This document shows positions 1-64,000 of a stretch of 64,000 nucleotides of DNA, one piece after another. Origin of the DNA: a virus. Made by a program: the position numbers and the translations under genes. The stretch's first letter is position 1. The number at the start of each line of letters is the position of its first letter. Location: IMG/VR virus record IMGVR_UViG_3300037419_001192, positions 38,691 to 102,690 of that record; one strand, written 5' to 3'. The notes beneath the pieces are model-generated. The model searched no databases. It was given only the letters and a program-made list of their open reading frames with translations, and was not told the origin of the DNA.

Positions 1-569
1 CGTTCGCGGTCGGCATCTGCGAAGGGCCAATCGTCGGGGTGCGGCGCGTCTGGGCCGATAACAAGCTGATTTACGATACCCAGAGCCCGGTGTCCGGCAG
101 CGGCTCGGCGGGGCTCGCCTTCAAAGCCAAGGGCTTTCGATTGTATTTCGGCAGTGAAAACCAGTTGCCCGATCCGCTGATGGAATCCATTGAGGGCGTT
201 GGCAACGTTCCGGCCCACCGGGGCATGGCGTACCTGATTATCGAAGACCTCGACCTGACCGAGTTTGGCAATCGATTGCCAGTGCTGAATTTCGAAGTGG
301 TCACGACGAATGGCTTGCTGCTGAAAGATGTGGTCACGCTCGTTTCCGAACGCTGCGGCTTGTCTGCCGATGATATCGATGTCTCGATGCTCGGCGCATC
401 GCTGCATGGCTATGGCATCTTGCATATGACCGGCAGGAATGCCTTGGAGCCATTGATGCAGGCATTCTTGTTCGATGCGGTGGAAAGTGGCGAAGTCGTG
501 AAGTTCGTATTGCGCGGTAATCCGCCTGTGCTCACTATTGCAGCAGAAGAACTTTTGGAGTCTGCATAA
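1..569 (+). CDS. Tail tip/baseplate hub N-terminal module, paralog 1 (5'-partial)
   Basis: Frame open from window start (FAVGICEGPI..RVWADNKLIYD..QLPDP..VPAHRGMAY..FGNRLP..FDAVESG). Motifs of GTA-like/J-like tail tip proteins. Confidence 0.8.
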   Translation, partial: FAVGICEGPIVGVRRVWADNKLIYDTQSPVSGSGSAGLAFKAKGFRLYFGSENQLPDPLMESIEGVGNVPAHRGMAYLIIEDLDLTEFGNRLPVLNFEVVTTNGLLLKDVVTLVSERCGLSADDIDVSMLGASLHGYGILHMTGRNALEPLMQAFLFDAVESGEVVKFVLRGNPPVLTIAAEELLESA

Positions 570-2656
570 TGGCATCTCTCGCACTCGGATCAATGCAAGC
601 GAATGCCGGGGTCATCATCCCCGGTGCCGGTGCATCCACCGGGTATATGTATGGCTCGTCACTGGGCACCGCGCTATTTCCCGAAGTGAAATCGGGCGGG
701 CCTAGCCTTGCCGAATTGAAATTCCAAGATTCGACGCTAGGCATGACGATCCCCATCGTGTATGGCGCATTCCGAGTCGCTGGTAATGTCATCTGGGCGA
801 CCAGCCTGAAAGTCTCGACCAAGTATCCGGGCAAAGACCCGAACCACCCGAACTACACTTGTTCGTTCGCAGTTGGCGTGTGCGAAGGCGGTAAGGGTAT
901 CCGCAAAATGTGGTTCGATTCGAAGCTGGTGTATGACGCCAGTTCGGTGAAGATCATCCATGGCTTCCATGCGTCTTCCTTCAAGATTTACATGGGCACC
1001 GAAGACCAGTTGCCCGACCCGACCATCGAAATGGATAAGGGCGTTGGCAATGTGCCAGCATTCCGGGGGCTGGCCTATGTGGTGTTCAACACGCTGGAGT
1101 TGGTCGAATATGGCAATCGATTGCCAAACATTTCTTTCGAAGTCGCGGATATCGATACTGGGCCGACGCTGACGCTGACCTACAGCCCCATCGTGGATTA
1201 CATGGGCGGCACCAGCAATCTCGCCAACATCACCTACTACCAAAGCATTGCCTACGATTCAATGTCGAATACGGTTTGGCAAATGCTGCTATACCAAGCC
1301 ATCAAGCAAGATGACCCCAAGCTGACCGGCACCTTTGCAATCATCGATGCGAAAACCATGACGGTACTTGGCACCACGACCGGGGAGCCCGGCTTTGGCC
1401 CGAATGGCATCACCGATGGCACGTTGGCTTACCAGATGGAGCCGGGCTACCTGATCGCCAACCCGAAGGCGAATCAAATGATTTACTGGGAAAACGATTC
1501 GCCTCCGATTGTCCGGGCCTATAACGCGACGACCGGAGCATGGTTGTGGGACAAAAATTTCTATGATCCGGCTCACCCGCTGCGCTTTCCAGAACCTGAC
1601 CCCTATAGCGACCCGATGGATGGCTGCTGGGTCAACCAGTACGATGGCTCGATCTGGGTTTCCAGCGTGTATGGCATCCAGCAATTGAGCAATGCCGATG
1701 GCAGCATTCTCCGTACTTTCCCGCTGCCGAGTGCCCCCGCAACGGATGATGTTTTTGAAATGACCTTTTACAAGGACAAGTTCATTTACTACACCACTTC
1801 GGGAAATTCCGGCGACTCCACTACCGGCAGTGTTGTCTTCCATGTGCGCGGCCTGAATTTGTCCACGGGGCAAGTCGTGAATTACCTGAGCGGAAACACT
1901 TCTACCTCCACGGGCTTTACAGTCAATTTTCGTAGCATTACCTGCGACACCCTGCGCAACCACTTCATCGTTCTGAAAGCCGAATCGCAAACCACGACGA
2001 CCGTGGGGGAATCGCTGCGGCTGATCGTTTATGATCCAGTTGCCATGATGGTAATCACAGATAAGCCGATCAGCTACACCACCCTCGATAACGGGGAGCA
2101 ATCGACCGCCAACCTCGTCAATGCCATCCCGCAGTACGATCTGGCCCATGATTGTGTCTGGGTAACGAATTTTGTCACCGGCATGGATTACTTAAATAAC
2201 GGCACGATTGCGAATGGCAATACCTTGGCAGCGCTCGATCCGGTGACGCTCGATTTGCTAATCCAGAGCGAGCCGATAGATATCGGCATTCAACCCGTAG
2301 CGATTGGCAACGATACGCTGCCATGCGTGTATGTGAATACGGCGAATTACAACGGCACCGCGAAATATTGCTTTGGCACCCAGTCTCCGCCCGGCCCGGC
2401 CACCCTCGGGGAAACCCTGTACGATATGTCGGCGCGGATCGGTCTGGTCGGCCAAGCGGATACCAATGGCTTGTTCCAGAAAATCAAGGGTTTCGCAGTC
2501 ACGCAGCAAATGCCTTGCCGCAGCGCAATGCAGCCGCTGATGCAAGCCTACTATGTGGATGCGGTGGAATCCGGGGAAACGGTGAAATTCGTGCAGCGCG
2601 GCCAGCCCCCGGTAACTACGATCCATATGGATAACGCGATTCCGGAGGGACAATGA
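569..2656 (+). CDS. Tail tip N-terminal module, paralog 2, with ~400-aa inserted beta-rich domain
   Basis: IPIVYGAFRVAGNVIWA, LPDP, VPAFRGLAY, YGNRLPN, then an insertion, then DAVESGETVKFV. Confidence 0.8.
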   Translation: MASLALGSMQANAGVIIPGAGASTGYMYGSSLGTALFPEVKSGGPSLAELKFQDSTLGMTIPIVYGAFRVAGNVIWATSLKVSTKYPGKDPNHPNYTCSFAVGVCEGGKGIRKMWFDSKLVYDASSVKIIHGFHASSFKIYMGTEDQLPDPTIEMDKGVGNVPAFRGLAYVVFNTLELVEYGNRLPNISFEVADIDTGPTLTLTYSPIVDYMGGTSNLANITYYQSIAYDSMSNTVWQMLLYQAIKQDDPKLTGTFAIIDAKTMTVLGTTTGEPGFGPNGITDGTLAYQMEPGYLIANPKANQMIYWENDSPPIVRAYNATTGAWLWDKNFYDPAHPLRFPEPDPYSDPMDGCWVNQYDGSIWVSSVYGIQQLSNADGSILRTFPLPSAPATDDVFEMTFYKDKFIYYTTSGNSGDSTTGSVVFHVRGLNLSTGQVVNYLSGNTSTSTGFTVNFRSITCDTLRNHFIVLKAESQTTTTVGESLRLIVYDPVAMMVITDKPISYTTLDNGEQSTANLVNAIPQYDLAHDCVWVTNFVTGMDYLNNGTIANGNTLAALDPVTLDLLIQSEPIDIGIQPVAIGNDTLPCVYVNTANYNGTAKYCFGTQSPPGPATLGETLYDMSARIGLVGQADTNGLFQKIKGFAVTQQMPCRSAMQPLMQAYYVDAVESGETVKFVQRGQPPVTTIHMDNAIPEGQ

Positions 2657-3480
2657 CTACCCTAGCCCTTTCCGGACAAACCGCCGCGCCCCCGCAAAAA
2701 ACGGCGCAGGGCGGCTTGATGACGGGCTCGCTGATCGGCTCGTCATTATTCAAGAACACGAATAACTCGGGCAGCCGGCTATCGGACTTGAAGGTGCAAT
2801 CCTCGGCTTATGGCAATGCGATCCCGATTGTGTTTGGCAGCTACCGCGTGGCCGGCAATGTGATCTGGTCTACCAATCTGCAACAGGTCGGCACCGGTAC
2901 TTCCTACATGGTGTCATGTGCGATTGCAATTTGTGCTGGCCCGGTGGTTGGCGTGACACGGGTATGGGCTGACAACAAGCTGATCTATAACGCCCGCACC
3001 GATATCGGCACCCAAGGCCAAGCCTTGCCGGTCGGCGCAGTGACGTTTTATCCGGGCAGCGAAACCCAATTGCCCGACCCCACGATTGAAGCCTATGAGG
3101 GTGCAGGCAATGTGCCGGCGCATCGCGGCATTGCTTATGTGGTGCTGACCGATTTGCAACTGGCACTCTTTGGCAATCGATTGCCAAACTTTACCTTCGA
3201 AGTCGGCGCACCGACCCCAGTGCCCTTGCCGGTACGGGATGTGGTTGCCGAACTGAGTCGGCTATGCGGCATGGCCCCGGATCAACTCGATGTCGCGTCG
3301 ATGCAATCGGTATTGCATGGCTTTGCGCTGACGCGGCAGCAACCATGCCGGGCGGCGCTGGAACCGCTGATGAAGCTTTTTCGATTCGATGCGGTAGAAT
3401 CTAGTTCCACAGTGAAATTCGTTGAACGCGGCAATCTGCCCGCCCTTGTGTTATCGATGGATACCACGATACCCGGCTAG
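2653..3480 (+). CDS. Tail tip N-terminal module, paralog 3
   Basis: SAYGNAIPIVFGSYRVAGNVIW, VPAHRGIAY, FGNRLPNF, FDAVESSSTVKFV. ATGA overlap with the previous gene. Confidence 0.8.
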   Translation: MTTLALSGQTAAPPQKTAQGGLMTGSLIGSSLFKNTNNSGSRLSDLKVQSSAYGNAIPIVFGSYRVAGNVIWSTNLQQVGTGTSYMVSCAIAICAGPVVGVTRVWADNKLIYNARTDIGTQGQALPVGAVTFYPGSETQLPDPTIEAYEGAGNVPAHRGIAYVVLTDLQLALFGNRLPNFTFEVGAPTPVPLPVRDVVAELSRLCGMAPDQLDVASMQSVLHGFALTRQQPCRAALEPLMKLFRFDAVESSSTVKFVERGNLPALVLSMDTTIPG

Positions 3481-3488: not shown

Positions 3489-6400
3489 ATGAGCAAAATT
3501 AACATTGTCAGGCAACAAGAATCGGAATTGCCCGCGCTGGTATCGGTGCAGTACATCAACCAAGGTGCCAATTACCAGCAAGGGGTGCAAACCGCGAAAC
3601 GCTTCACCGCGCATAGCAGCCAGCAAGTCACGATCCAATGCCCGATTGTCTTCACCGATCTGGAAGCCAAGCAGATCGCGGAAATCCTGATGTACAACGC
3701 ATGGATCGAACGCGACCGCTTTACGCTGACGCTGCCCCGGAAATATGCGTATCTGGAGCCGACCGATGTATTCAATATCTATGATCCGATCAACTCGTTC
3801 ATCTTCACGGTGCGGATCGTATCGAAAACCGAATCCCGCACCGGCACCGTAGCGCTGGAATGCGTCGCTGACCATGCGCCGCTGTACAAGCAAAATGCCG
3901 CGACCTCGACCGTGCAGGCGCAAGTGCAGACCGGCACTGTGGCCTCGCAAACCATCGTTGCACTGATGGACTTGCCGGCGCTGACGAGCCAGAACTATTC
4001 GACCGGGTATTACCTCGCGCTGGGCGGTACGAACTCGGGGTGGACGGGCGGCTCGCTATACCAATCACTCGATGGTGGACAAACCTATACGCTGGTGCAA
4101 TCCACGGCGGGTGCCGCGACGATGGGCACAACGCTAAATGCGCTCTCGCCATTCCCTACCGGGGGTATCGATACCACCGATACGTTGACCGTTTCTATCA
4201 CCAGCGGCACCCTATCTTCCACGAATGCCACCGGCTTGGCGAACGGCGTCAATACCGCATCGGTGCAAACGGTAGGCGGCTACGAAATCATCCAGTTCCA
4301 AACCGCAACCCTGCGCAGCAGCGTCGATGGCGTCGATACCTATGTGCTGTCTGGCCTGACCCGTGGAGAATATGGCACCGAATGGGCCACGGCGGGCCAT
4401 GCGGTGGGCGACCAGTTTGTATTGCTGGATTCCAACGTGATCCGGGTGCCAATATCCACAACGCAACTCGACCAGCCGATCCTGTACAAAGCGGTATCGA
4501 CCGGGCAAAGCCTGTCCTCGGTATCATCGTTCACACTGTCGAATACCGGCGTGGCGATCAAGCCGTATGCACCGGTCAACGGCACGGCAACGCAGGCTTC
4601 CAGCGGCGATGTGACGATAAGCTGGACGCGCTCGCTGCGAGTTGGCGAAACCAGTTCTTCGACCGCGACTTACCAAGTCGAAATCTTCGATGCCACATTC
4701 AACACGCTGAAACGCACGATCACGGGTATCACCGCGTCGGGCATGACTGCCGGCACCACGTACACGGTGGCGCAGCAGACGCAGGATTTCGGCGGCGTGA
4801 TTTCCGAGTTGTATGCCCGGATTGAACAAATCGACCCGACCGTGGGCGTGGGCTACCCGGAACAAATCGATGTGCCGCTGCAAACCACGACTACCACGAC
4901 CACGGGCGGCAAGTTTGCTGGCGTGGTGGAAGCAGCCAATGCGGCAACGAGTGCCGATGCCGATCTGGTGCCGGCTGCCGTTGGCGGATCGCAATGGAAT
5001 CCTTCCGCCACTGGCCCGGCTGTGACGTTGCTGAACAACAGCTATTCGATGGAAGTGCTGGATGGTGCAATTTCCACGACTAGCTGGGAAAGCGCCCTGT
5101 CGATTACTTCGCAAACCGCTGGCAAATGGTATGCGGAAACGATCTTCAACAATGTCGGCTACTACAGCGTCGGCTTTGGCGTGGGCACGGCGGCGCAAGC
5201 TCTCACCGGCAATACCTCGCCTCCGGGCAGCAATGCGAAAAACGCCTTCATCCTCGATTCCGGCAGCAGCACCAGCAGCTTCCGCTTCAATGGTGTGACC
5301 GATAACACATTGCCGGGCATCCACAACAATGACCGCATCGCCATGGCAGTGGACTTGGATGCGCAACTGGTTTGGTACTCGGTCAATGGCGGCAACTGGA
5401 ACAACAGCGCCTCGGCCAATCCCGCTACCGGGGTGGGCGGCAAATCGTTCGCCGGGATTGCTGCCGGCCCGTACTACTTGCTCGGTACGGTAGTGTCCTC
5501 GACCGGGTACTCCAGCGGCGAAGTCACTCTCAGTTCGCAGAACTACCTGACGGTGCCAGCAGGCTTTTCGTCATGGGATAGCACCACGATCCAGCATCCG
5601 CCTAGCTCGCTGTCGGCCTCAATTACCGAAAGCAATACGGCAACGGATTCGATGGATAGCCAATGGACGCCGGCTGGCAGCGCAATCAAGGGCACGGCGG
5701 GGCTCACCAAGCTGTATGGCGATGCCAGCATGGACGATGGCTACCAGCAAATCACGATCCCATTCCCATTCAAATTCTTCAGCACCGATTACGGCAACGA
5801 TGCGAATGGCGGCGTCTTCGTCGGCTCGAACGGGTATGTCACGTTCGGCCAAAGCAACACCGCGTATTCCGGCCTGACTGCCTCGGTTCTCGGCAGGGCA
5901 CTGGCGATCCATGCCGGCGACCGCAGCCTCCAGCGCTTGTATGGTGGCATGGATGGCAGCAATTACCGTATCCGCTATGAAGGCGATATCACTTCTGGCG
6001 GCACGGCGGGCAGCCCGACCGAAGTATGGGAATTGACGTTTGCCACCGATGGCCGCATGCAATTGGCGATGGGCGTCGAAGGCACGATTGCGGCGGGCGA
6101 TGCAGGCGTATCCGGTATCTCGAATAGCATCACGATTTCCCCGACCTTCAATCCGACCACATGGACGAGCTATGTATTGACGCCGGATGCGAATGGCGCG
6201 AACTGGGTGATCACGACCGGCACGTTGACGAACGGCACTTCGGGTGGAACGTCTGGCGGCACGACGCTGACCCCAACCAAGTATGTGTCCCCGACCGGCA
6301 GCGATTCGAATCCGGGTACGCAAGCAGCACCATGGCAATCGTTTGCCAAGGCGGTTGCCAGCGCGGTGCCGGGCGATGTCGTTGCCTTCATGGATGGCAC

Positions 6401-7517: not shown

Positions 7518-7538
7518 GCTGGCAATTGATTGCCACGG

Positions 7539-7567: not shown

Positions 7568-7651
7568 TTTCTGGTTAGGAAGTTTTCCGTGGTGTATTCT
7601 TGGGGGCAATTCTTTCTGGCAATCAGTTGCCGCAACCTCAAGAGGAATACC

Positions 7652-8242: not shown

Positions 8243-8288
8243 GGGCGGGGTGGAGTGGCAATTGATTGCCGCCACCCCGCTTGTTTTT
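8243..8288 (+). terminator. Terminator hairpin enclosing one copy of the 16-bp dyad
   Basis: GCGGGGTGG..CCACCCCGC followed by TTGTTTTT. Confidence 0.55.
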
Positions 8289-10469: not shown

Positions 10470-12458
10470 ATGACCGCGACAATGAATCTCGACTATGCGT
10501 TTGGCGGGCAACCCTATGCGGTGGATGCTCCCAGCGACACGACCCCGGATACCCTTGATTATGCGTTTGGCGGGCAGCCCATCTATGTACCGTCATCCTC
10601 TACGGCGTCTTCGTATTCGGTTTCCGTATCGGAATTTGCCACGGCGGCGGATACGCTGTCGGCAACGGATTCCACCGCTGCCAGCATTACCGAAGCCGCT
10701 ACGGCGGCGGATTCCCCTGCCACCACAGTTGCCACGGCGGTCAGCATTCTGGAAAGCAATACCGCCTCGGATTCCGTTACCGGGGGCAATGTCACCACGG
10801 CGGCACAATCTGAGCCCGCTGCGGCGGGGGATGCCCCCACGGTAGCGGTCAATTTTGCACCCTCGATCACCGAAGCTAATACCGCGCTCGATACACTGAC
10901 TACTGCGGTGACATCGGCAGCCACGGTATTGGAAGCCGCCACGGCGGGGGATAGCACCGATGCCGGCGACCTCGTATCCGATAGCGTGGTGGAGGCTGCT
11001 GCCAGCGCCGATACGGTTGCCGCGACTTGGCAATCGATTGCCACTGCCATGGAAGCCGCAACAGCCGCAGATGCAGTTGGGGTTTCTATACTGGGAGGTT
11101 CTTTCAGCGTTGCCGAGCCCGCCACGGCGACTGACCAAAGCAATGCGTCGGCTATTTATTTGATCAGCGAAGCGGGCGCAGCCACCGATGCGGTGTCAGC
11201 GGGGCGTATCGTTGCAGCTTCGGTTACCGAAGCGGCCACGGCGGGCGATGGCCTCGATCTGCAACAATCGCTGGGCGTCGCCATCACTGAAGCGGCGGTT
11301 GCTGCGGATAGCGAAACCGCTGCCTTCCATACCGTGCTGCGCCAAAGCGAAACGGCGGCAGCGAATTCGACGCAAGCCAGTACGTTGGTCACCGCAGCCA
11401 GCATCAATGAAGCCGCTGCTGCGACCGATAAGCTATCGGCCACGATCCCCAAGAGCCATCAAGTCAAGGCCAGCTTGGCTGAAGCGGCTGCCGCCAAGGA
11501 TACGGTATCGACCGGCCCGACCAAGACCACGGCCACCATCACTGAAAATGGCTTGGCGGCAGATCAAGTGTCTTCCAGCTATATCGGCCAAGTCACGCCG
11601 AATGCCGAGGCCATGGCTGCCTCCGATCAAGCTGGCAGCACGATGGTTACCCTTGCTACGGCGGCGGAAGCCGCGCTGGCGGATGACCTTGCCGATGGCA
11701 CGTTGGTATCGACGCAAGGGGCAGTGGATGCTGCTGCGGCGGCAGATTCCTTATCTGCTGGCGTAACAACGGCGGCTGCTGTGCTGGAGATTGTTGCGGC
11801 AGTCGAAATAGTATCGGGCACTCTCGTCACGGCGGCGGGCGTTACGGAAGCCGCTGCTGCCCTCGATACCGAACAGCAGACCAAGGCGCTGGCCCCGCTG
11901 GCAATGCATCTGGAAGTTGCGCAAGCACTGGATGTCGTGGCTGCGGATCGTATCGTGCTTGCCGATGTCGCAGAGCCGACCGACTACCTGACCGAAGCAA
12001 CTGATTCTTCGTTGATCGAACTCTCGGTGCAGCAACTCGAAAAGCTGCATGCCACCGATGCCACCGATGCCGGCTATGCGATCCCGCTGGCAGATACCGA
12101 AGCCGCGAATGCGAAAGCCATGGTATCGGCAGGCTTGCTGGCGGCAGCAGAGCAATGGGATTACGCGGCAGCACAGGATGACGTCGATGCCGGGATCACG
12201 TACCAAGTCAGCGTGGCTGAAGCCGCCTTCGCTACGGATAGTACCGATGCCGGCGTGATTCGCCTTGCCATCACTGTGGAAATCGCGGCGGCGAGCGATG
12301 CCAGCAACCGCGCCATCGAAGAAATCAAGCCGATCAAGACTGGATTGCATTTCGCCCATATCGGACACGGCAGCTTGAATTGGCAATCAATTGCCAAGCG
12401 CGAGGCGAACTTTAGTTCGGTGCGCCGTTATCAAGTACCATTTTCCGATGAGCAATAG
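10470..12458 (+). CDS. Ala/Thr-rich repetitive fibre protein
   Basis: Many ~19-aa S(I/V)xEAAxAxD repeats; duplicated LDYAFGGQP at the N-terminus. Confidence 0.65.
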   Translation: MTATMNLDYAFGGQPYAVDAPSDTTPDTLDYAFGGQPIYVPSSSTASSYSVSVSEFATAADTLSATDSTAASITEAATAADSPATTVATAVSILESNTASDSVTGGNVTTAAQSEPAAAGDAPTVAVNFAPSITEANTALDTLTTAVTSAATVLEAATAGDSTDAGDLVSDSVVEAAASADTVAATWQSIATAMEAATAADAVGVSILGGSFSVAEPATATDQSNASAIYLISEAGAATDAVSAGRIVAASVTEAATAGDGLDLQQSLGVAITEAAVAADSETAAFHTVLRQSETAAANSTQASTLVTAASINEAAAATDKLSATIPKSHQVKASLAEAAAAKDTVSTGPTKTTATITENGLAADQVSSSYIGQVTPNAEAMAASDQAGSTMVTLATAAEAALADDLADGTLVSTQGAVDAAAAADSLSAGVTTAAAVLEIVAAVEIVSGTLVTAAGVTEAAAALDTEQQTKALAPLAMHLEVAQALDVVAADRIVLADVAEPTDYLTEATDSSLIELSVQQLEKLHATDATDAGYAIPLADTEAANAKAMVSAGLLAAAEQWDYAAAQDDVDAGITYQVSVAEAAFATDSTDAGVIRLAITVEIAAASDASNRAIEEIKPIKTGLHFAHIGHGSLNWQSIAKREANFSSVRRYQVPFSDEQ

Positions 12459-13101: not shown

Positions 13102-13568
13102 TACCCCACGGCATGAAGCAAGCGGTCAGGCAAGAATTCCCGGTGCTGCTGGCAGTCTGTTTCGTCGCCCTGATCCTCGGCGGGCTCGGCGCAATCGGTT
13201 GGCTGTATGTTTTCGAACAGCCTTACCTCGAATACCGCAACATTCCCTTTCCGATCACGGACAACCCGGTGCGGGCCGGCGATTCGGTGCCGTTGACGGT
13301 ATCGCGGTGCAGCCGGGCTTCAACGCCGCGCACCTATACCCTCACGCACTCGCTGGAAAACATCAAAACGCATGCCGTGGTGCTGCTGCCCGAAACGCAA
13401 TCGTATATCCAGCCGGGTTGCTCCATCGGCCTATCCTCGCTGCATACGGTGCCGAAAGGCACTCCGACCGGGCGCTACCGCGTCTATGGCTTGGCTGAAG
13501 TCCGCACCAGTTTCCGTACCCATTACGTCGAATGGTATAGCCAAGAATTCGATGTGATTGGCAATTGA
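13098..13568 (+). CDS. Membrane-anchored lysis-module protein
   Basis: N-terminal TM helix followed by a beta-rich domain; ATGA coupling. Confidence 0.5.
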   Translation: MIPHGMKQAVRQEFPVLLAVCFVALILGGLGAIGWLYVFEQPYLEYRNIPFPITDNPVRAGDSVPLTVSRCSRASTPRTYTLTHSLENIKTHAVVLLPETQSYIQPGCSIGLSSLHTVPKGTPTGRYRVYGLAEVRTSFRTHYVEWYSQEFDVIGN

Positions 13569-13583
13569 TTGCCGGATGCCGCC

Positions 13584-15347: not shown

Positions 15348-15381
15348 ATACAACCGTGCGGCAATCGATTGCCAAAACCCT

Positions 15382-15990: not shown

Positions 15991-16218
15991 ATGACTGCCC
16001 AGCAAGCCCGCGTCTTGAAAATACTGATTGCCCGCGACCGTTTGTACCGCAGCAAAGTGTTTTATCAAGTCCCTGTCGAAAAGAAAGACATGGGCGTGGC
16101 AATCGGCGTGGTGGCGAATCGCCAGACCGCTGATTCCCTCGTTGCATGCGGCTTGGCTGAAGTCCGAGACTTTGATGGCCGGCTGTATGTGTGTTTGAAA
16201 AGTAACCTTGGCAATTGA
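15991..16218 (+). CDS. Hypothetical protein
   Basis: AAGGAG SD. Confidence 0.55.
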   Translation: MTAQQARVLKILIARDRLYRSKVFYQVPVEKKDMGVAIGVVANRQTADSLVACGLAEVRDFDGRLYVCLKSNLGN

Positions 16219-16242
16219 TTGCCATTTTCAATGGAGTGGCTG

Positions 16243-17439
16243 ATGCTCATTGAAACTGCCTTGAAGGCAAAATTTCCTGTGATTGCTGTTACCACGGACG
16301 ATTGCATATCCGTGCCGCAAGTGCTGACCGCATGGACTGGATTCAAAGCCGCCGAACTATCCAGCAAGACCCAGATACCGGCGATCCACACGATTTACTA
16401 TTGCTTCGATGCCGACCTGATCACGATCAAGCTGTATGAGAAATTCAAGGATGCGGGCCGCAGCGTCGTGCTGGTGAATCCAGAAAAGAAATGTCAGATG
16501 GCATTCGAGGCCGGCGAACTGACGGTGCCGGAAGCGATGTTCCGCGAACATCTTGCCGCCCTGACCAATGAAGAAGTTGGCGGCATGCTGTACCCGGTAT
16601 TGAAAGGCTTGTCGTTAAAAACCGCTGAAGAAGTGTTGATGATTGCGCAAGTGCAATTCAATTCGGTGCTGCCCGCCGATGTGAAGCGGGCGCGGACGAT
16701 GTTGAAAGGGCTGGAGCATGGACTGCATACCATCGATACCGATTATGATTTCTATCTGTTCCCGGAAAAGCTGAAGGAATGGCTGGAACTCAACCGGGAT
16801 TACTTCCTGAATCCGAAAACACCGGCCAAGCTGGTGCCGCGTGGCGTGATGCTCGAAGGCTATCCCGGCACCGGCAAGTCGATGGCGGCAAAAGCAATTG
16901 CCCGCTATTTCGGGGTGCCGCTATACCGGCTCGATGTTTCCACCGCCATTACGAAATACCAAGGGGAATCGGAAAACCGCGTCGCCCGCATTCTTGCCTC
17001 GCTGGAAAAGGAAGCCCCGTGCGTGTTGTTGCTCGATGAAGTCGAAAAGATTTTCTCCGGTATATCCGGGGAATCCACCGGGGTCATCACCCGTATCCTG
17101 TCGCAACTGCTATGGTGGCTGGCCGAGCATCGCAGCCGTATTATCACGGTGATGACCACCAATAATTTGACGCACATCCCCCCGGAGTTGTACCGCAGTG
17201 GCCGTTGCGACATGGTAATGAAAATCCCTCGCATGAGCCTGCAAGAAGCGCATTGCTTTGCTATTCGAGTGTACGAGAGTGTTTTAGGGCAAAAACCTTC
17301 AATGAAGGTTACAACGATGCTAAAAGAGGCATTGAAAACCCAGAATGCCGCCGAGTTCGCCCATAGCGATGTTGCTGAAGTGGTCTATTTCCTGATAAAA
17401 AAACACAACTGGTTATCCCATGGCTCAATTTCCGTTTAA
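16243..17439 (+). CDS. AAA+ ATPase
   Basis: Walker A GYPGTGKS, Walker B LLLDEVEK, MTTN..PPELYRSGRCD. Confidence 0.9.
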   Translation: MLIETALKAKFPVIAVTTDDCISVPQVLTAWTGFKAAELSSKTQIPAIHTIYYCFDADLITIKLYEKFKDAGRSVVLVNPEKKCQMAFEAGELTVPEAMFREHLAALTNEEVGGMLYPVLKGLSLKTAEEVLMIAQVQFNSVLPADVKRARTMLKGLEHGLHTIDTDYDFYLFPEKLKEWLELNRDYFLNPKTPAKLVPRGVMLEGYPGTGKSMAAKAIARYFGVPLYRLDVSTAITKYQGESENRVARILASLEKEAPCVLLLDEVEKIFSGISGESTGVITRILSQLLWWLAEHRSRIITVMTTNNLTHIPPELYRSGRCDMVMKIPRMSLQEAHCFAIRVYESVLGQKPSMKVTTMLKEALKTQNAAEFAHSDVAEVVYFLIKKHNWLSHGSISV

Positions 17440-18034
17440 AGACCTGACTTTCCAAACTTTTGGAAAGTTAAAAGTTTTGTACCAGTCTGCTATTAAGAAA
17501 CATAACCGGGTGACTTGGGTATGCCGGTGTTCTTGTGGAAACCAATGCTTGGTCACTGGAAATGCTCTTGTTATGGGTAATACGTCTTCTTGCGGGTGTG
17601 GGCATTACGAGGGGATAACTACCCACGGCCTTTCAAAAACTCCAACCTATAAGAGTTGGAATGCCATGGTGGGCCGCTGCACAAAACCCAACTGGAAGGA
17701 TTATGCGCGTTATGGGGCAATAGGTATCACGGTATGTGGGCGGTGGCTGGGGGAAAAGGGATTTGAAAATTTCCTTGCCGATATGGGTACTCGTCCGGAA
17801 GGAACTACCCTTGACCGCTACCCTAATAATGCTGGCAATTATGAGCCCGGAAACTGCCGATGGGCTACTCCACAGCAGCAAAACACTAATCAAAGGCATC
17901 TAGTGTTTTATGAACACGAGGGCAAGAGAATGACAATCACCGAATGGGAACGTGAACTAGGGTTTAAAAAGACAACCCTCCGCGCCCGGATACAACGGTA
18001 TGGCATGACCTTTGAAGAAGCCATAAAGAAATGA
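17420..18034 (+). CDS. HNH homing endonuclease
   Basis: FGKLKV..WVCRCSCG..SCGC..FLADMG.RP..TLDR..GNYEPGNCRWAT; AT-richer than neighbours. Confidence 0.85.
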   Translation: MAQFPFKDLTFQTFGKLKVLYQSAIKKHNRVTWVCRCSCGNQCLVTGNALVMGNTSSCGCGHYEGITTHGLSKTPTYKSWNAMVGRCTKPNWKDYARYGAIGITVCGRWLGEKGFENFLADMGTRPEGTTLDRYPNNAGNYEPGNCRWATPQQQNTNQRHLVFYEHEGKRMTITEWERELGFKKTTLRARIQRYGMTFEEAIKK

Positions 18035-18062
18035 TTGACAAACCGGATAGTGAGAGTAAGAT
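18035..18062 (+). promoter_or_regulatory. sigma70-type promoter
   Basis: TTGACAAAC..TAAGAT. Confidence 0.6.
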
Positions 18063-18097
18063 GGGTCTGTCGCAAACAACCAACCAATGGAGTGAAA

Positions 18098-18667
18098 ATG
18101 ACTGAATTTTTGAAATCCGTTCTTGGCGATTACAAGCCATTCGAATTCATCCACGGCACCGGCAACCGCTACATTGTCATCGGGAAAGTCGGTGACAATA
18201 AAGTGGCGATCCATATCGAAGCCGGCACCGGGGCCGTACCGTACAAGGGCAACAAGCTGGCAACGACCGGGCTGGCGCTGCGGCTAATCGAAATCGGGGA
18301 AGATTCCCTGCTGGGTAAAGCCTTCGGGCATCGCGGCCATGCGCAGTTCGCCACCCCGGATGGGGAAGTCCTCGAAGGGCATCGGCTGATCAAGACCTTT
18401 TTGCCGGTCACCAACTACCCGACTTCCGGCGCGACGTTCCACAAGTTTCTGGCTGTAGCACTGCCGAAACTCGCCACTTTCATCAAGGAAAAACTCGAAG
18501 GCGCGGGCGGCAAACTGACGATTTCCCTCGATGAACTGGAAACCGCAATGAAATGCAACCTCGATCTGTACGATAACCCCGACCTCGATCTGTTCCATTT
18601 GCCGGGGCAAAAGCCGGATTGGCTCGAAGCCAAGAAACCGGAACCGCCTGCCGAGAGTGGCAATTGA
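18098..18667 (+). CDS. Hypothetical protein
   Basis: CAATGGAGTGAAA-ATG leader. Confidence 0.65.
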   Translation: MTEFLKSVLGDYKPFEFIHGTGNRYIVIGKVGDNKVAIHIEAGTGAVPYKGNKLATTGLALRLIEIGEDSLLGKAFGHRGHAQFATPDGEVLEGHRLIKTFLPVTNYPTSGATFHKFLAVALPKLATFIKEKLEGAGGKLTISLDELETAMKCNLDLYDNPDLDLFHLPGQKPDWLEAKKPEPPAESGN

Positions 18668-21694: not shown

Positions 21695-21704
21695 GGAGCA
21701 TTTG

Positions 21705-43672: not shown

Positions 43673-43783
43673 CTGGCAATCAATTGCCAAGATTTTCCCT
43701 ACCCACCACCCTCACGTTGTTTGTTAGTTGCCTTTCGGCCAGATCACGCCTAACATTGCCTCCTGTCAAGCAAGGAGTGAGCA

Positions 43784-46313: not shown

Positions 46314-46495
46314 ACCGATGCGCGTCTACTACCGCAGCCGCAAGCCCGGTGGCAATCAATTGCACCGCATCGATGTCGAGTGCATCAATGGCGCGGGCGC
46401 AAAAGAAGCAATGCAGGAAGTGCAGGATTTCTTGACAAGCAACAAGCTGAAATTCTTTGGTGCCGTGCTGGCAGTCGTCAAATAGGAGAAATGCC

Positions 46496-46852: not shown

Positions 46853-46977
46853 TGGGCTGGTGGATTGTGTGGTCGTGCGAGTGGGCGTTGGCCTGCGAAG
46901 ATTTGGCAATCGATTGCCAAACGGTGCGGCAACTCATTGTGTAAATCCCGCAAGGAGTGCGTCGGCATGGAGCCAAC

Positions 46978-48218: not shown

Positions 48219-48685
48219 TGAGTCCGGAAGAATGCAAAACCGTAGCGGAAAACCTGCGAGTGATGGGGCCGAAGGCAGTCGAAACCGAAGTGCTGGTAGG
48301 AATATTGGCACTGGTGATAAGCAATGCGCGGCAGTATCCGGATAAATCCTTCTACGAAATCATCAAGGAGTGCTGGCAGGGCTGGGAAACCGGGGAAGGC
48401 CAGCCGCTATTACCAACATGGAAAGAGTAGCGATGATGACAGGCAAGGAGATAACCAACTTGGAAGATAACCTTGCCCGCATCCTGCCTGTGGCAATTGA
48501 TTGCCATATGGTCGTCGCCATCATGGCCGCGCTCGTCGTTGCCACGAAAGACAATCCCCAGCTATCAACCTACGATCTGATCCGCAGCGCCTGCACCGAT
48601 TGGCACAACAATAAGCTGCCGGAATGGAATCAATTGTGGAGCAAGTGGTGATACACTAACCCCGCCAATGCGTACTGTACTTGAA

Positions 48686-50292: not shown

Positions 50293-50328
50293 TTTGGCAA
50301 TCAATTGCCACCTCCAATGGAGTGAACC

Positions 50329-50778: not shown

Positions 50779-51156
50779 ATGATGGATAAATACCTCGAAG
50801 CGGAAAAGCGGCTGGCCGCATTGGTATTGGCTGGCGAGCTACAGCCAAATGATGAGCTTGTCCTTGTCAATGATAGGACGCACATCAAGCGCCCCTTTGG
50901 CAATGCGTGGCAACTCATATCGACGCCTAGCTGGACAAGAGACAATGCCGCCGCCTTTGCCTTGATGGTGGAGCATGGCGTCGATGTGATGTTCGGTGAC
51001 CCAGCACAAGCTTTCGCTGCCGTGGGGTTGGCTGGCCCGGAGGGAGAAACCGCAGCCGAAGTGATCGAATACCATGCCGACCACCCCAACAAGGAAACTG
51101 CCGTGCGGTATGTCATCGTGCAAGCGGTGATTGCCAAACTGGAAGCTGGCAACTGA
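50779..51156 (+). CDS. Hypothetical protein
   Basis: P.WTRD..AAF.L motif seen in NinX-like phage proteins. Confidence 0.5.
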   Translation: MMDKYLEAEKRLAALVLAGELQPNDELVLVNDRTHIKRPFGNAWQLISTPSWTRDNAAAFALMVEHGVDVMFGDPAQAFAAVGLAGPEGETAAEVIEYHADHPNKETAVRYVIVQAVIAKLEAGN

Positions 51157-51621
51157 TTGCCAAAATCTCTTTGACAAACAGCTTAGTTGTGCTAATATGA
51201 AGGCGTGGGTTGAACGAAAACGAAAAAGGAGATCGGAATGGATTTCATGATGCTTGTTTCGGGTTTCTTGGCTTCCGCCTTCATGGCTTACGGTTTGATG
51301 GAAGTGCGGCGCAGCAAGATGCGCAAAGTGCGGGCAGCAATGGCATACCGCGCCCGGTAACAAAACCAACCTCAATGGAGTGAAAAATGGGTTACGAAAT
51401 CATCTTTCATGCAGCAGTCATCGCCTCGGCAATCTGGGCCATGGGCGTCGCAGTCTACGCGATCATGGAGGGCTGCCTCGAATGCTGAAACATGCCTTGT
51501 TGGCGGTCGCCGTGATCGCCGTGACTTTTGCGGTGGGCCTTGAAGGCGCTGCCGCCCTGAAGACCCTGCTGGCCCCGGCGCTGGCACTGATCCACTAACG
51601 AAACCATTCAATGGAGTGAAT

Positions 51622-52170: not shown

Positions 52171-53319
52171 ACATGACAGCATACGACCAAGGCATCAGCG
52201 ATTTCCATGCGGGCCGATATAGGAATCCCTATATCGCCGGCAGCAGGGATCACCATGATTACCAATGCGGCTACCGGGGCGCGGAACAAGACTTCGTGCA
52301 GGAAGTGACCGGGCAACCATACCATGACAAGACCGATTGGGCGGCAAAGCAAGCGAGTTGCCAGCATGAATACGAAAGCGATTACGATGGCGGGGGCCAG
52401 CCATACCGGCGCTGCCGCAAATGTTTGAAGTACGCATAACTGGCAATTGATTGCCAACCATGGAGGGAACATGAACCAAGAGCAAGCTAGGCAGGACTTG
52501 GAGTACGTTATTGGGCTTGCAGAAAACCTAGCCCTTACATGCGAGAAATGGAAAGACCTGTATGATCGGCAGCGAAAACTGCTCGAATCGTTGCAATCTC
52601 GGTTGAATCACTATGAGCGCATGGGGTTCTGGGCGCGATTGCGCTTCGCATTTCTAGGAGATTGACATGAATGCCCGCCAAGCCCAGACCCAAGCGGCAG
52701 AGCAAGGATTTCGTTTTGCCAAGACCCAGCTTGGGTACTGGACGCTATACCAGCCGGGTCAAGCACCGGGGCAGCGGCTATGCATCCACTTCGGGGCCAA
52801 GCGCCTTGCCAAGATGGATGCTGGTACGCTGCGCAAATTCATCAAGCTGCTGGAAATCCGGCAGGAAAGGAAGCTTTATCATGACACGAAAGCAAAAACG
52901 CGAACTGCTGCGCATCGCCGGCATGCTGTCGTATGACATCGCTGGCATCGGCATTTGTTTCCTAATGCTCGTCGCCATGAGCGAAGGCCATATCTTATCG
53001 GCAGTCGTGTTTGCCGTGATCGCCGCCGTTCTGGTGGATCGGCAGCGCCGCTATTACCCGAAGGCCAAGCAATGATATTGATTCACCGCAGCAGCCTGTA
53101 TATCGTGCTGGCACCGATCTTTGCCGTGGGCTTGACTGCATTGTTATTGCTGCTGGCAGGAGCAACAGGATACTGGATGGGCAAGGCAGCAGCGCCGCCA
53201 CAAGCCGTTTGCACCCCGACCCAAGCCGACATACCAACCCAGCCACCGCAACCGCGCTATGAGCCCCCTAGCGAGCCACCAGACCGGGCGCTGGGGTTGG
53301 ATAAACCACCAAGGAGAAA

Positions 53320-54700: not shown

Positions 54701-55481
54701 TTTGGCAATCAATTGCCAGAACAATTTGCCCGCTGGTAATATAGGCGGGCTTCTCACTTGTAACCCGGAGTCAATATGGAAGTCGAAATCAAGCCGCTGC
54801 CCGCTCCCTTTAATCCATTCGAACTCAGCATTAAAGTTGAAAGCCAGCAAGAGGCGCTATGCTTGCTGGAATTGTTTTCGGAAGCCAGCAAATTTACCGA
54901 GAACACGACGCTTGCCCGCCTATCAACACAAATATTTGGGCAGTTAAGAAATGCGGCGAAGAAATAGGCTCGGATGCGAACTAGTTGTCCTTCTTTAATT
55001 CTTACACTTAATGTAGGGAAATGTCCTACGCGAATAACATAAGAATTAAAGAGCCGCAAGGGCCAAAAGTACCGTTCATATCAAAATAAAGTTGTGCAGA
55101 CAGCTTAATTCTGCTTAGACAAACTCGCTTCTTGGTGTATAATCGCTTCAAATCTAGTGCAAGGAGTGCGCTAAACGTCTGGAAGTGAACAGTAATTTCA
55201 CTTGTAATGCGATTGTCAGTTAACTTTACTGACGACAATGAATTCCTGTAGTAAATTGATTTCCTCCAGCCTATACTGGAACGCCCGACTGTTGCCGCAA
55301 AAAAGGAGTGATTTAAATGCAAGGGTCTACCGACCAGTCATCTTTCGATGACGTAGCCAATACATCCCCGCTCGAATCCGAAGAAAGCATTGCACTCAGG
55401 ATGGCGTATTTTGAATATCTGGAATGGATGCTCGATCACCAGCGCAATAACCGCGAATACTACCTGCACTAGACCAAACCA

Positions 55482-55508: not shown

Positions 55509-55549
55509 ATTTGGCAATTGATTGCAACTCACAAAAAGGAGAAGGCATT

Positions 55550-56733: not shown

Positions 56734-57263
56734 TGGAGTGCTACCTGAAGGGTGACAAGATCGAAGGGGAAATCTGGCAATCAATTGCCGGCTTCCCCGG
56801 TTACGAAGTATCGCATCTGGGCCGGGTGCGGCGCTTCATCCGCAAGGAAAAAGGTCACCGCTATTACAAGATCAAGACGTTGAGCCTGAATGCGGTCGGC
56901 AATCTGCTGGTCGGCATGAAAGATGAGAATGGCGTGAATACCACCCGAACGGTATCTTATCTGGTGGCTGCCGCCTTCCTCGATCCGGGCGAAGAAGGGC
57001 AAGCAATCCGCTACAAGGATGGCAATAACATGAATTGCTGCGCCAGCAATTTGTACTACCAGCCGGATAACAACCCGGCGCAAATCATCGTCGGGCCAGC
57101 GCAACCGAAGCGCGGCAATGCCTCGATCACCGAAGATCAAGCACGGGAAATCCGGCAATTGATTGCCAGCGGCATCCGGCGTCAGCGCGTGATGGCCCTG
57201 ACTGGCTGCACCGTGCATATTTACAAAAACATCCAACGGGGGAAATCATGGACGCATGTGTGA
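56730..57263 (+). CDS. NUMOD4-HNH-like protein (catalytic His replaced)
   Basis: EIWQSIAGFPGYEVSHLGRVR; IRYKDGN..N..ASNL; C-terminal HTH. Confidence 0.75.
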   Translation: MMECYLKGDKIEGEIWQSIAGFPGYEVSHLGRVRRFIRKEKGHRYYKIKTLSLNAVGNLLVGMKDENGVNTTRTVSYLVAAAFLDPGEEGQAIRYKDGNNMNCCASNLYYQPDNNPAQIIVGPAQPKRGNASITEDQAREIRQLIASGIRRQRVMALTGCTVHIYKNIQRGKSWTHV

Positions 57264-58367: not shown

Positions 58368-58443
58368 TCCGGCAATTGATTGCCAATTGTTCGGGGTGGC
58401 TGCCCCGCCTATAATGGGCCAACAATTTCCACAGGGCAGCCCT

Positions 58444-60698: not shown

Positions 60699-61033
60699 CT
60701 GGCAATCGATTGCCAAAGAAGCGGCGGGAACCGGAGCCGGGCACCCCGCTGCACCAAGCCTTTGAATCGATCCACAAGAACAGGCACAAGTTCACCGTGG
60801 ATGCGATCAACAAGATGATGGAATTGCGCAAGAGGAAGAAGCCATGAACCTGACCGTGTTTGAATATGAGACATTGCAGAAGGTCGTGGAAGCAGCCTTC
60901 CGCGATCCCGTCCTATCTCTGGCCGATGTTGGGCTGGACAAGGAAGAACAAAAGGCAATGGGCCGGGTGCAACGCAAGTTGACGATGTGCCGAAATTCAC
61001 TATTACAGGGGCAGCCGGGGGCGAGCCGGTATC

Positions 61034-61345: not shown

Positions 61346-62049
61346 ATGTCCAACCCGCAAGCACGACTATGAATTTCTGGGAAACCACAAGATAGTCAAA
61401 GCCCAGTATGGCCCGAATGGTAGCCGGGTGCAGTTTTCGGTGCGGGCATTCTATAAGTGCCGGAAGTGTGGCAAACAACGGATCGCGGCAGGTAACCCCA
61501 AAGCCCCGTGGCCCCAATTTTAAGGAGTGAACCATGATCCCAGCAATCCTATTGATCACGTTGATGATGTCTCTGTCTGGCGGCTTCGGCAAACTGATTT
61601 CCTATTGCTGGGAAGAAGATTGCCGCTCGATCTTGCCGATGATGCTGATGGGCGCTGCCACGATTGTCGTCGTCTGTGCAGAGCCGATGGGACACGCACT
61701 GGTATTCGTTGCCAGCGGCGGCACAACCGGGGTACTCGCATGAAAGAGAAAATTTTTAATGCATGGCGCTTCTTGCAATTCATCAGCATGACCTTTGCTG
61801 TGATGTGGAAAGCCATACGCGGCGGCTGGTTCGTCTATCGGGACTACCCTGAATGGTTCGTCGTCATGATGAAGGATGGCTACGAGTACAAAGAATCGGT
61901 CAAAGGAAAGCTGGATGACTTTGATATGAACCTGTTGCAGCAGGCACGGGAAGAATTGTCGTTGCGCAATCGTGGCAATCAATTGCCAAGTTGAGCATAG
62001 GAAATAACAGCAGGGAAGCCTATACTGCCTCGAATTACTGGAGGCAAGC

Positions 62050-62337: not shown

Positions 62338-62379
62338 TTGCTGTTGGGCTATACTTGGGCGACTTTCTGGAGCCGCCCT

Positions 62380-64000
62380 ATGTTCGCCACCGTACTCAAG
62401 TTCAATTCGCATCACGATCCGAAGGATGGCAAGTTCACCACGGCGGATGGTGCCAAGGTATCGGGTGCGGCCCGCAGCAAACTGCACAGCATGTTCGACC
62501 GCATCGGCCAGCCCGATGGCGGCTTTACTTATCAACCGATGACCGGCAGCGAACCGAGCGCGGGCTATGCGTTATCGATCTATCCGGAGAAGTCATTCGC
62601 CAAACCCGCCGATCAATTGAAATTCAAGGATTTGGTTGATTATTACCTGAAGAACCGCGATGTCTTCAGCCAGCCTGACCATTTCATCGGCGCATGGCAT
62701 GACCCGGCCAGCCACAATGTCTTCCTCGATGTCTCGGTAGTAAAGGATTCGGAGGAAGAAGCAACCAAGCTGGCGCTGGCGCATGACCAGATCGCCTATT
62801 TCGACTTGAAGAATTTCAAGTCGATCACTGTCAACCCGGATGCGAAATCGGGTGTATTGAAAGGAAATCATGGACAAACCGAAACTGGTGCTGGCAAAGC
62901 CGACCGATGCGAAGACATTGGAGACACTGGCGCAACTCTACCGGCAACTGACAGGGCGGGAGCCGACGCCGGAAGAATTGGCGGAAGCGGAGCAGTGGAT
63001 CAAAGATCACCCCTTGCAAAGCAAGGATTATGGCAATCAATTGCCAAAGTCCTGAAGTTCAACAAATACCACGACGACCAAGGCCGCTTTACCACCAAGG
63101 ATGGGGCGGTGCAGCCGGGCCACAAAGCCGTGCCCACCGTCAATGCAATGGCACAGGCGCTCGATAAAGTCGGGCCAGATCAATTCGAGCGCATGGTCAC
63201 CGCACACATGCAGCAAGTCCATGGCGATAAACTTTCCCCGAATGACTACGCGCACGAAATCGAGCGGGTTGCCCGGCAGATACTAGGCCGGCAATCGATT
63301 GCCAGAGTCTTGAAGTTCAACAAATGGCACGACCCGCATACCGGGGAATTCACGTTTGCCGACCATGCTGCATTCAAGGATGCATTGAAAGCGATGGGGC
63401 ATAACCCCGACCAGCACCCGAATATCCTGCAAGCCTCGGTGGCCGGCAAAAAGATTTTTGCGAATGGCGAAAGCCTTGGCATCCCGCGTGGCAACATGCC
63501 GCAAATCCCTGCCGAAGACTACCCGGAATTCTTCAAGAGCCTTGGCGTGGCTGTCACGCGGCATGATGTCGATCCGAATACGCTGAAGCCGACGCAAAGC
63601 GAAATCGATGGCTTCAAAACCGCCAAGCTGTATCAGCAAATCAAACACGGCAGCCACAACAAGACCATCCTTGCTTCCAAGGAAGGCTATATCCTCGATG
63701 GGCATCACCACTGGGCAGCGCATGTGGTGCGCTCGATGACGCATCCGGACGATAAGATTTCCGTTGATGTGATCGACATGGATACGAAGTCGCTGCTGGA
63801 GCGGGCGCATGAGTTCGATAAGGCGCATGGCATCGAATCCAAGGACATCACCAAGCATGACTTTGCTGCAATCTTGAAGGAAGACCCATACCATGACCCA
63901 AAAAACGGACAATTCACTACCGCAGCCGGCGCAGGACATAGCGGAAGCAGCGTATCAGGAAATGGCGGCATCGCACTCCGACCGCAGCAACCCGACGCCC
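62380..64000 (+). CDS. Multidomain polyprotein (3'-partial, absent from ORF track), including a ParB/Srx-like domain
   Basis: GGAG SD, ATG 62380, no stop to window end by manual translation; four (V/I)LK-xxxxHD-x2-3-GxFT repeats; LKPTQ..ILDGHHHWAA. Confidence 0.8.
   Translation, partial: MFATVLKFNSHHDPKDGKFTTADGAKVSGAARSKLHSMFDRIGQPDGGFTYQPMTGSEPSAGYALSIYPEKSFAKPADQLKFKDLVDYYLKNRDVFSQPDHFIGAWHDPASHNVFLDVSVVKDSEEEATKLALAHDQIAYFDLKNFKSITVNPDAKSGVLKGNHGQTETGAGKADRCEDIGDTGATLPATDRAGADAGRIGGSGAVDQRSPLAKQGLWQSIAKVLKFNKYHDDQGRFTTKDGAVQPGHKAVPTVNAMAQALDKVGPDQFERMVTAHMQQVHGDKLSPNDYAHEIERVARQILGRQSIARVLKFNKWHDPHTGEFTFADHAAFKDALKAMGHNPDQHPNILQASVAGKKIFANGESLGIPRGNMPQIPAEDYPEFFKSLGVAVTRHDVDPNTLKPTQSEIDGFKTAKLYQQIKHGSHNKTILASKEGYILDGHHHWAAHVVRSMTHPDDKISVDVIDMDTKSLLERAHEFDKAHGIESKDITKHDFAAILKEDPYHDPKNGQFTTAAGAGHSGSSVSGNGGIALRPQQPDA
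62870..63055 (+). CDS. Small gene nested in the +1 frame of the polyprotein linker
   Basis: AAGGA SD; helical 61-aa product (LAQLYRQLTGREPTPEEL). Confidence 0.55.
   Translation: MDKPKLVLAKPTDAKTLETLAQLYRQLTGREPTPEELAEAEQWIKDHPLQSKDYGNQLPKS

Follow-up and report, generated by a model that had tools for sequence, protein, structure and literature searches.

The viral record IMGVR_UViG_3300037419_001192, 102,690 bp long with a 127-bp end repeat, carries along its whole length a lattice of a short palindrome, TGGCAAT-YR-ATTGCCA, whose copies are under purifying selection that overrides the sequence of the proteins in which they are written. Our window is the 64-kb stretch from base 38,691 to base 102,690 of this record, and positions are counted from its first base unless stated otherwise. 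The lattice belongs to a clade of phages, and the best candidate for its reader is a protein of 275 amino acids (275 aa) encoded in the window, the core of which is predicted to fold like the DNA-binding domain of ParB, KorB and Noc.

The palindrome lattice in this phage

The exact 16-mer, TGGCAATNNATTGCCA, occurs 23 times in the window, compared with no occurrence across 100 dinucleotide shuffles, and when up to two mismatches are allowed the count rises to 43 (shuffle mean 0.6, maximum 2). These matches include one at position 2215 with a poor right arm, which is probably due to chance. A first-pass annotation, made from the letters of the window alone, had listed 43 copies, and 42 of them were recovered at the same threshold, the copy at 35526 being weaker (Table 1). 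Its tally of central dinucleotides (17 CA, 17 TG and 9 CG, never TA) was reproduced, where CA and TG are one site seen from opposite strands. Across the whole genome there are 64 sixteen-mers with at most two mismatches and between 65 and 76 GGCAAT-NN-ATTGCC cores with at most one; CG is found at the centre of 9 of 65 sites and TA essentially never, and on the + strand CA (32) and TG (28) show no orientation bias. Since free half-sites are not notably frequent, the palindrome as a whole is the unit.

The enrichment persists under a codon-aware null: within called genes there are 25 exact cores, where 30 synonymous-codon shuffles that kept the proteins average 1.4 and never exceed 5. The copies had been described as dispersed over the whole genome, and the spacing agrees with this, as the gaps have a coefficient of variation of 0.68, where random placement gives about 1, and none of 5000 simulations was equally even. 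They had also been said to sit at gene ends, and indeed a stop codon lies within 20 bp of the centre of 20 of the 65 sites (null mean 3.3, maximum 11), with a TG-centred site supplying the gene's own TGA stop in six cases. About one third of the sites are in gene junctions, and those away from stop codons lie inside genes, in several frames.

Selection on the DNA word

Evidence that the DNA itself is selected comes from comparing this phage with its relatives, the Stenotrophomonas phages DLP5 and DLP3. These two are 83% identical in nucleotide sequence, and 33 of the 41 DLP5 sites are in place between them, where ~16% would be expected. The proteins of this phage and DLP5 are 40-65% identical; of 14 intragenic sites of this phage, 7 fall at homologous codons in DLP5 (null 0.11), and some sites keep their position between proteins that are just 45% identical. 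The peptides encoded by the sites, such as LQSIA and AAIDC, are ~80% identical if both phages have the site, compared with 41-47% for the whole proteins, whereas at sites confined to this phage the amino-acid identity of the site codons drops to 0.13-0.35. Because identity is ~0.8 at shared sites and so much lower at unshared ones, it is the DNA word that dictates the peptide. Together with the codon-aware null, these comparisons bear out the earlier suggestion of selection on the DNA rather than the protein. More distant relatives have no sites at shared positions, so individual sites turn over while the lattice persists.

Some sites of the tail region have a second explanation. In three tandem tail-tip paralogues, the CG-centred sites at 266, 1111 and 3171 fall on a conserved GNR(L/I)P motif, the RcZahn counterpart of the GNRLP peptide being GNRIP, and three of the six CG-centred sites clustered in the tail region are thus explained because the protein motif and the DNA motif coincide. 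At nearly all sites of this phage, including those conserved in position, the outer base has changed from T to G, which is the pattern that a changed reader specificity would give.

The lattice across the phage clade and in host genomes

Judged by the major capsid protein (MCP), the closest named relatives are the Stenotrophomonas phages DLP5, DLP3 and Summit (68% identity), followed by Rhodobacter phage RcZahn, Rhizobium phages and the Vibrio SIO-2 group. The lattice is found in the three Stenotrophomonas phages, in Rhodobacter, Rhizobium, Vibrio and Aeromonas phages and in most of ~40 uncultured relatives, and all sampled phages that carry the gene of the 275-aa protein, except one divergent lineage, have a site every 1.3 to 6 kb. 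The clade-wide form is N-GCAA-N-YR-N-TTGC-N, of which the 16-mer of this phage is a local spelling. The spelling is TGCAAT-CA-ATTGCA in DLP5, DLP3 and Summit (34-36 copies) and in the uncultured G005 (97.8 kb; 48 copies), TTGCAAT-YA-AYTGCAA in RcZahn (20 copies), GTGCAA-YWWA-TTGCAC in RHph_Y1_11 (18), TGCAAC-NN-GTTGCA in L338C (47) and HJ05 (16), TGCAAT-CG-ATTGCA in RcTiptonus (27) and CGCAAG-YR-CTTGCG in G215 (28); G219 has CGCAAT (22 copies), and one half-site dominates in SIO-2 and VHS1 (~26-29 copies). Most of these genomes show significantly even spacing, and all sites in a genome switch spelling jointly, lineage by lineage.

A literature search found no published description of such a lattice, and the papers on DLP3 and RcZahn mention no palindromes. 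A megablast of 20 kb of the window against a phage collection gave no match, and IMG/VR scans for the exact 16-mer returned single chance matches only, with one copy in each of four ~100-kb contigs that were checked.

The lattice is a feature of the phage clade and is probably not a host repeat. Per genome, 121 members of the order Lysobacterales have 0-3 copies of TGCAATYRATTGCA and 81 Vibrio genomes have 0-1, counts that cover host clades of the named relatives. In a GTDB scan for the 16-mer of this phage, the matches listed were scattered singles only, never more than one per 8-kb locus.

A few observations on spelling and hosts stand apart from this pattern. The Rhizobium phage L338C (L297-L302) has, beside its 47 sites with a 2-bp centre, 12 copies of TGCAAC-N1-GTTGCA, which is one base shorter, and a dense run of sites at 70.6-77.3 kb. 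Among the IMG/VR relatives L349-L352 and L346, one divergent lineage of the reader gene (38-40% identity) has imperfect palindromes of the type TTTGAT-CTTAGT-ATCAAA, and another has GTGCACT-CA-AGTGCAC; these palindromes may be re-spelled lattices. Several Xanthomonadales genomes contain a conserved pair of TGCAATCGATTGCA ~8.68 kb apart (for example, G072:C1:704726 and 713413; G044:C1:3696895 and 3705579), which could form an operator pair or mark the termini of an element.

The candidate reader

The first-pass annotation had named the gene at 35831 among its candidate binders, and in our analysis it is the best candidate. The 275-aa protein is present in every relative sampled and is found in only 50 phage records, all of this group; one search returned 333 metagenomic homologues, and in another the family comprised 3,122 representative clusters at 50% identity. 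The label "DUF3102-like" (PF11300) that the gene had been given is not supported, as the protein has no Pfam match at E <= 0.01, none of 25 family members has one at E <= 5 and ten longer homologues show no Pfam domain; the DUF3102 leads in the ESM Atlas are weak (feature score 0.86, structural TM 0.38-0.46).

Structural modeling suggests that the core of the protein folds like a ParB/KorB/Noc DNA-binding domain. The AlphaFold model is confident over residues 28-163, and VIA-align matches residues ~40-167 to the ParB DNA-binding domain on parS (6S6H) with Z 8.3, to Spo0J (1VZ0) with Z 7.9 and to the KorB DNA-binding domain on its operator (1R71) with Z 7.3, a second KorB match having Z 6.2. 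The alignments to ParB, Spo0J and KorB span 105-110 residues, and unrelated rows have Z <= 5.8. Foldseek gives ParB-type neighbours weakly, with no match at E <= 0.001, and the ParB-type neighbours in the ESM Atlas are likewise weak. The candidate lacks the CTPase domain of ParB: ParB_N (PF02195) is not found in the genome at E <= 0.01, although the same search finds it in 11 of 14 control genomes, and only ~40 residues precede the DNA-binding domain. A ParB-like domain had also been proposed in a "polyprotein" as the binder, and this is not supported, since PF02195 is found nowhere in the genome and the wrap-around open reading frame (ORF) is without Pfam match. Another near-universal protein, of 124 aa, was considered as reader and gave no DNA-binding lead.

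A site lies 150-220 bp upstream of the conserved core of the reader gene in 14 of 43 distinct homologues, compared with ~6% expected, which is weak evidence because the lineages are related. In the most conserved helix, residues 95 and 96 are near-invariant K and A in the family and are T and I here, and this K95T/A96I change is unique to this phage; we give it little weight because it is a single case and there is no general code. An RT-type helix is also seen in the homologues P0020, P0021 and P0044, whose contigs were not returned by the metagenome and IMG/VR scans.

The gene has a strong promoter of its own 70 bp upstream and is followed by an ORF-free stretch of ~1.2 kb (36686-37998), in which ARAGORN predicts an 81-nt tRNA-Cys at 36730-36810 and Rfam finds nothing at gathering score.

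A co-inherited replication-recombination module

The lattice is inherited together with a replication-recombination module that encodes an AAA ATPase, an O/DnaD-like initiator, DnaB, a primase, an SSB-like 249-aa protein, an SF2 helicase, a MerR-like regulator, UvsX, resolvases, a Cas4-like exonuclease, MazG and the candidate reader. Among ~137 genes profiled, eleven are detectable in 11 of 11 named or complete relatives, namely those for PolA, portal, protease, MCP, AAA ATPase, DnaB, SF2 helicase, UvsX, Cas4-like exonuclease, TerL and the 275-aa protein. The relative G219, which has an even genome-wide lattice, has only the replication-recombination module in common with this phage, with no detectable homologue of MCP, portal or TerL. 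With G215 the overlap is eight genes, among them those for DnaB, SF2 helicase, UvsX, the exonuclease and the 275-aa protein.

What the lattice may do

We see about an even chance that the 275-aa protein docks as a dimer on the palindromes, marking the chromosome of the phage. The palindrome would be a docking site selected as DNA and spread evenly along the chromosome, and its most likely reader would be the 275-aa protein, with a ParB/KorB/Noc-type helix-turn-helix (HTH) domain, a C-terminal helical part and one dimer per 14-16-bp site. We infer both this binding and what it does, which would be to provide a genome-wide "self" mark or organiser during replication and recombination. We favor such a role over classical operator repression because few sites lie at promoters and because the pair of lattice and protein travels with DnaB, SF2 helicase, UvsX and Cas4-like nuclease rather than with capsid or packaging genes. 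A role in packaging is unlikely given that G219 is without a detectable TerL homologue. As for promoters, the genome has 18 near-identical ones of sigma-70 type, with TTGACAAAC followed ~17 bp on by a TAnnAT-type -10, of which six are outside the window. A lattice site is centred 16-17 bp upstream of three of the 18 (in the window, those at 15382 and 51171), whereas the other 15 strong promoters have no adjacent site, making operator-type control unlikely, and promoter-to-site distances are indistinguishable from random (P = 0.16).

Several observations weigh against docking by the 275-aa protein. Neither Pfam nor sequence comparison, including a profile search against PDB sequences, links its family to ParB. 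Raf1, a Rubisco factor, reaches Z 9.1, above ParB, and Z values of 7-8 in an all-helical domain can reflect a common arrangement. No simple residue-to-base code holds across lineages, site density among relatives has a more than ten-fold range, and the lineage L349-L352 has the protein and no GCAA lattice, only a different imperfect palindrome. Finally, other genes of the module, for the MerR-like regulator or the O-like initiator, could be the reader.

A possible reading of the mark, which we put forward tentatively, is that the lattice is a phage-private "self" code, in which ParB-domain dimers every 1-5 kb, in both orientations, would act as protein-based Chi-like sites or loading pads. The sites would serve the phage SF2 helicase, Cas4-like nuclease, UvsX and DnaB, which on phage DNA would then stop or prime resection and recombination-dependent replication, with site-less host DNA being degraded, and each lineage would re-spell all its sites along with the reader.

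If docking by the 275-aa protein is true, a very large phage group, including cultured phages of Stenotrophomonas, Vibrio, Rhizobium, Rhodobacter and Aeromonas, uses a dense and even DNA code that takes precedence over the coding of proteins. With an uncharacterised relative of ParB and KorB, one devoid of the CTPase domain, as its reader, the code would put the ParB DNA-binding fold to a new use and represent a new principle for marking viral genomes. This is directly testable in the cultured DLP3 and DLP5. The lattice is also a sequence signature by which the clade can be recognised in metagenomes, and for therapy-candidate phages it has relevance to carrier states and plasmid-like persistence.

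Comparison with known systems

The closest known system is KorB with its OB operators. KorB reads 12 OB operators on the IncP plasmid RK2 (PMC11790492; structures 1R71 and 8QA8), so that in both cases a mobile element has a dispersed short palindrome and its own ParB-superfamily HTH reader, here a candidate. However, KorB, with its N-terminal CTPase domain, is a sliding clamp that cooperates with KorA at promoters, and its 12 sites are mostly near promoters, whereas the 65-76 sites here are evenly spaced, mostly intragenic or at stop codons, and show no promoter association. Noc with its binding sites (NBS) and ParB with parS are also alike in having 14-16-bp palindromes for a dimeric ParB-type HTH, with many Noc sites scattered over the chromosome, and the 14-16 bp of the phage site fit the 13-16-bp cognate palindromes of ParB, KorB and Noc, the binding being predicted here. 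Noc and ParB differ in being CTP-dependent clamps with roles in segregation or nucleoid occlusion, while the phage candidate has no CTPase domain and lies in a replication-recombination module. The density of Noc and ParB sites is ~100 times below that of the phage lattice.

The stoperators of Cluster A mycobacteriophages (L5, Bxb1) resemble the lattice in their dozens of copies, often in short intergenic gaps, read by one phage protein. Stoperators are asymmetric and oriented with transcription, and the immunity repressor binds them as a monomer. In contrast, the lattice sites are palindromic, without orientation bias in this phage and often within ORFs, and the clade includes phages that their papers describe as lytic. 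Chi and DNA uptake sequences are similarly over-represented, even, placed in genes in all frames and used to mark self DNA, but they are short asymmetric words of the host, read by RecBCD/AddAB or an uptake receptor, whereas the lattice word is a 14-16-bp palindrome confined to the phage.

Alternative explanations

The main functional rival, possible though in our view not probable, is a docking lattice for KorB-, Noc- or stoperator-like global silencing or roadblocking of transcription, for segregation, or for plasmid-like maintenance, in a prophage or carrier state. DLP5 lysogenises as a phagemid and DLP3 lysogens are stable (PMC7326821); KorB, Noc and ParB are the closest folds, and KorB can silence a promoter that lies as far as 1.5 kb from its site (PMC11790492). 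The share of sites in gene junctions, the three promoters with a site just upstream and the one-directional sites of RcZahn (CA 12 vs TG 0) point the same way. However, most of the strong promoters have no adjacent site, the distances to promoters look random, this phage has no orientation bias, and there is no ParB_N CTPase domain for sliding.

We consider it unlikely, and less so only than the explanations that follow, that the reader is another module protein, either the MerR-like HTH regulator or the O/DnaD-like initiator; with the initiator as reader, the lattice sites would be numerous weak origins or places where helicase is loaded. Both proteins are predicted to bind DNA, belong to the co-inherited module and are kept by G219, and the spacing of 1.3-5 kb is near the length of Okazaki fragments. 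The sites of the lambda O protein lie in its own gene, and one conserved lattice site within the initiator gene parallels that arrangement. Nevertheless, both proteins are detected in fewer than 8 of the 11 relatives and neither was found in G215, to which the weak sensitivity of tblastn for short proteins may contribute, and the sites are single and not clustered with AT-rich DNA, unlike usual origins.

An improbable explanation is that the sites are substrates of a phage nickase or endonuclease, or of a sequence-specific DNA-modifying enzyme. DLP3 DNA was resistant to all 15 restriction enzymes tested and may be modified (PMC7326821). This phage has a cluster with a PPDK-like kinase, a ThyX-like gene and conserved unknown genes (genome positions 1186-7232, L243, outside the window), which is shared with the DLP phages and may be a DNA hypermodification pathway, and also a 224-aa NUMOD4 + HTH gene that is homing-endonuclease-like (37880-38554). 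Yet the kinase/ThyX cluster is missing from the lattice-bearing L338C, RcTiptonus and HJ05, and the homing-endonuclease-like gene is below our conservation cut-offs, being present in fewer than 4 of 7 relatives. Known methylase sites are far shorter than a 14-16-bp palindrome, and ~65 sites cannot account for resistance to 15 enzymes.

RNA hairpins at gene ends that terminate, stabilise or process long + strand transcripts would fit the six-fold excess of sites at stop codons and the placement of nearly all genes on one strand, but they are very improbable, as the hairpin has little stability (-6.8 kcal/mol in this phage and -3.5 when spelled TGCAAT), its stem is invariant and not covarying, most sites in relatives are intragenic and Rfam gives no match across the window. 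Intrinsic terminators are excluded by the weak hairpin and by a T-run following just 3 of the 65 sites. Equally doubtful is a host factor as reader, such as a LacI-type repressor, a type of factor proposed in the first-pass annotation, or a generic host or selfish repeat that is passively carried: the CG variant is like LacI-family operators and the TGCAATCGATTGCA pair is conserved in some Xanthomonadales genomes, but CG centres are a minority, three of them forced by the GNR(L/I)P peptide, the motif is near-absent from the host-clade genomes scanned, the core is common to phages of Alpha- and Gammaproteobacteria, and whole genomes switch spelling by lineage.

Table 1. Lattice sites and related features of the window (positions 1 to 64,000)
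Feature	Position	Strand	Centre	Match	Remarks
lattice site	266..281		CG	exact	encodes GNRLP, tail paralogue 1
lattice site	1111..1126		CG	exact	GNRLP, tail paralogue 2
lattice site	3171..3186		CG	exact	GNRLP, tail paralogue 3
lattice site	6333..6348		CG	1 mismatch	
lattice site	7520..7535		TG	exact	directly past stop of 1342-aa tail gene
lattice site	7617..7632		CA	2 mismatches	
lattice site	8256..8271		TG	1 mismatch	
lattice site	11028..11043		CG	exact	
lattice site	12381..12396		CA	exact	
lattice site	13559..13574		TG	1 mismatch	TGA is the gene's stop codon
lattice site	15359..15374		CG	1 mismatch	centre 16 bp upstream of TTGACAAAC promoter
lattice site	16209..16224		TG	exact	TGA is the gene's stop codon
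lattice site	18658..18673		TG	exact	TGA is the gene's stop codon
lattice site	21515..21530		TG	exact	O/DnaD-like initiator gene; codon position shared with DLP5, G219
lattice site	23028..23043		CA	2 mismatches	in DnaB
lattice site	24928..24943		TG	exact	
lattice site	26611..26626		TG	2 mismatches	directly past stop codon
lattice site	29058..29073		TG	exact	SF2 helicase; codon position shared with G005, DLP5, G219
lattice site	31186..31201		CA	exact	UvsX/RecA gene
lattice site	34246..34261		CA	2 mismatches	RuvC; codon position shared with G005, DLP5, G219
weak lattice copy	35526..35541		TG	1 mismatch in 14-bp core	plus outer-base mismatches
lattice site	36667..36682		CA	exact	16-mer begins 9 bp past stop of candidate reader gene
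lattice site	38559..38574		CA	exact	directly past stop codon
lattice site	41525..41540		CA	1 mismatch	
lattice site	41996..42011		CA	1 mismatch	
lattice site	43674..43689		CA	exact	
lattice site	44081..44096		TG	1 mismatch	
lattice site	44487..44502		CA	2 mismatches	in TerL
lattice site	46350..46365		CA	2 mismatches	
lattice site	46904..46919		CG	exact	
lattice site	48491..48506		TG	exact	
lattice site	50295..50310		CA	exact	directly past stop codon
lattice site	51147..51162		TG	1 mismatch	TGA is the stop codon; centre 17 bp upstream of promoter
lattice site	52441..52456		TG	exact	directly past stop codon
lattice site	54703..54718		CA	exact	directly past stop codon
lattice site	55512..55527		TG	1 mismatch	
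lattice site	56775..56790		CA	1 mismatch	
lattice site	57153..57168		TG	1 mismatch	
lattice site	58370..58385		TG	1 mismatch	
lattice site	60700..60715		CG	exact	gene junction
lattice site	61973..61988		CA	exact	
lattice site	63031..63046		CA	exact	
lattice site	63289..63304		CG	1 mismatch	
candidate reader, 275 aa	35831..36658	+			no Pfam match; residues ~40-167 predicted ParB/KorB/Noc-type fold; C-terminal helical part
promoter of candidate reader gene	35761..35795	+			sigma-70-like, strong: TTGACAAAC then TAGAAT-type -10
replication-recombination module	16219..36658	+			inherited together with lattice
O/DnaD-like replication initiator	20582-21694				
MerR-like HTH regulator	30155-30580				
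TTGACAAAC promoters	14899, 15382, 18035, 21576, 23879, 26662, 27677, 35761, 38781, 48727, 51171, 59476				

Other observations

Positions 30001-40000 of the window are present in full in seven soil or rhizosphere metagenome runs, pointing to a soil host; two other runs contain part of them, and no RNA run is listed. The clade has another conserved short motif, the leader word CAATGGAGTGA, which includes a GGAG Shine-Dalgarno sequence and occurs ~20 times in this phage and 15 times in DLP5.

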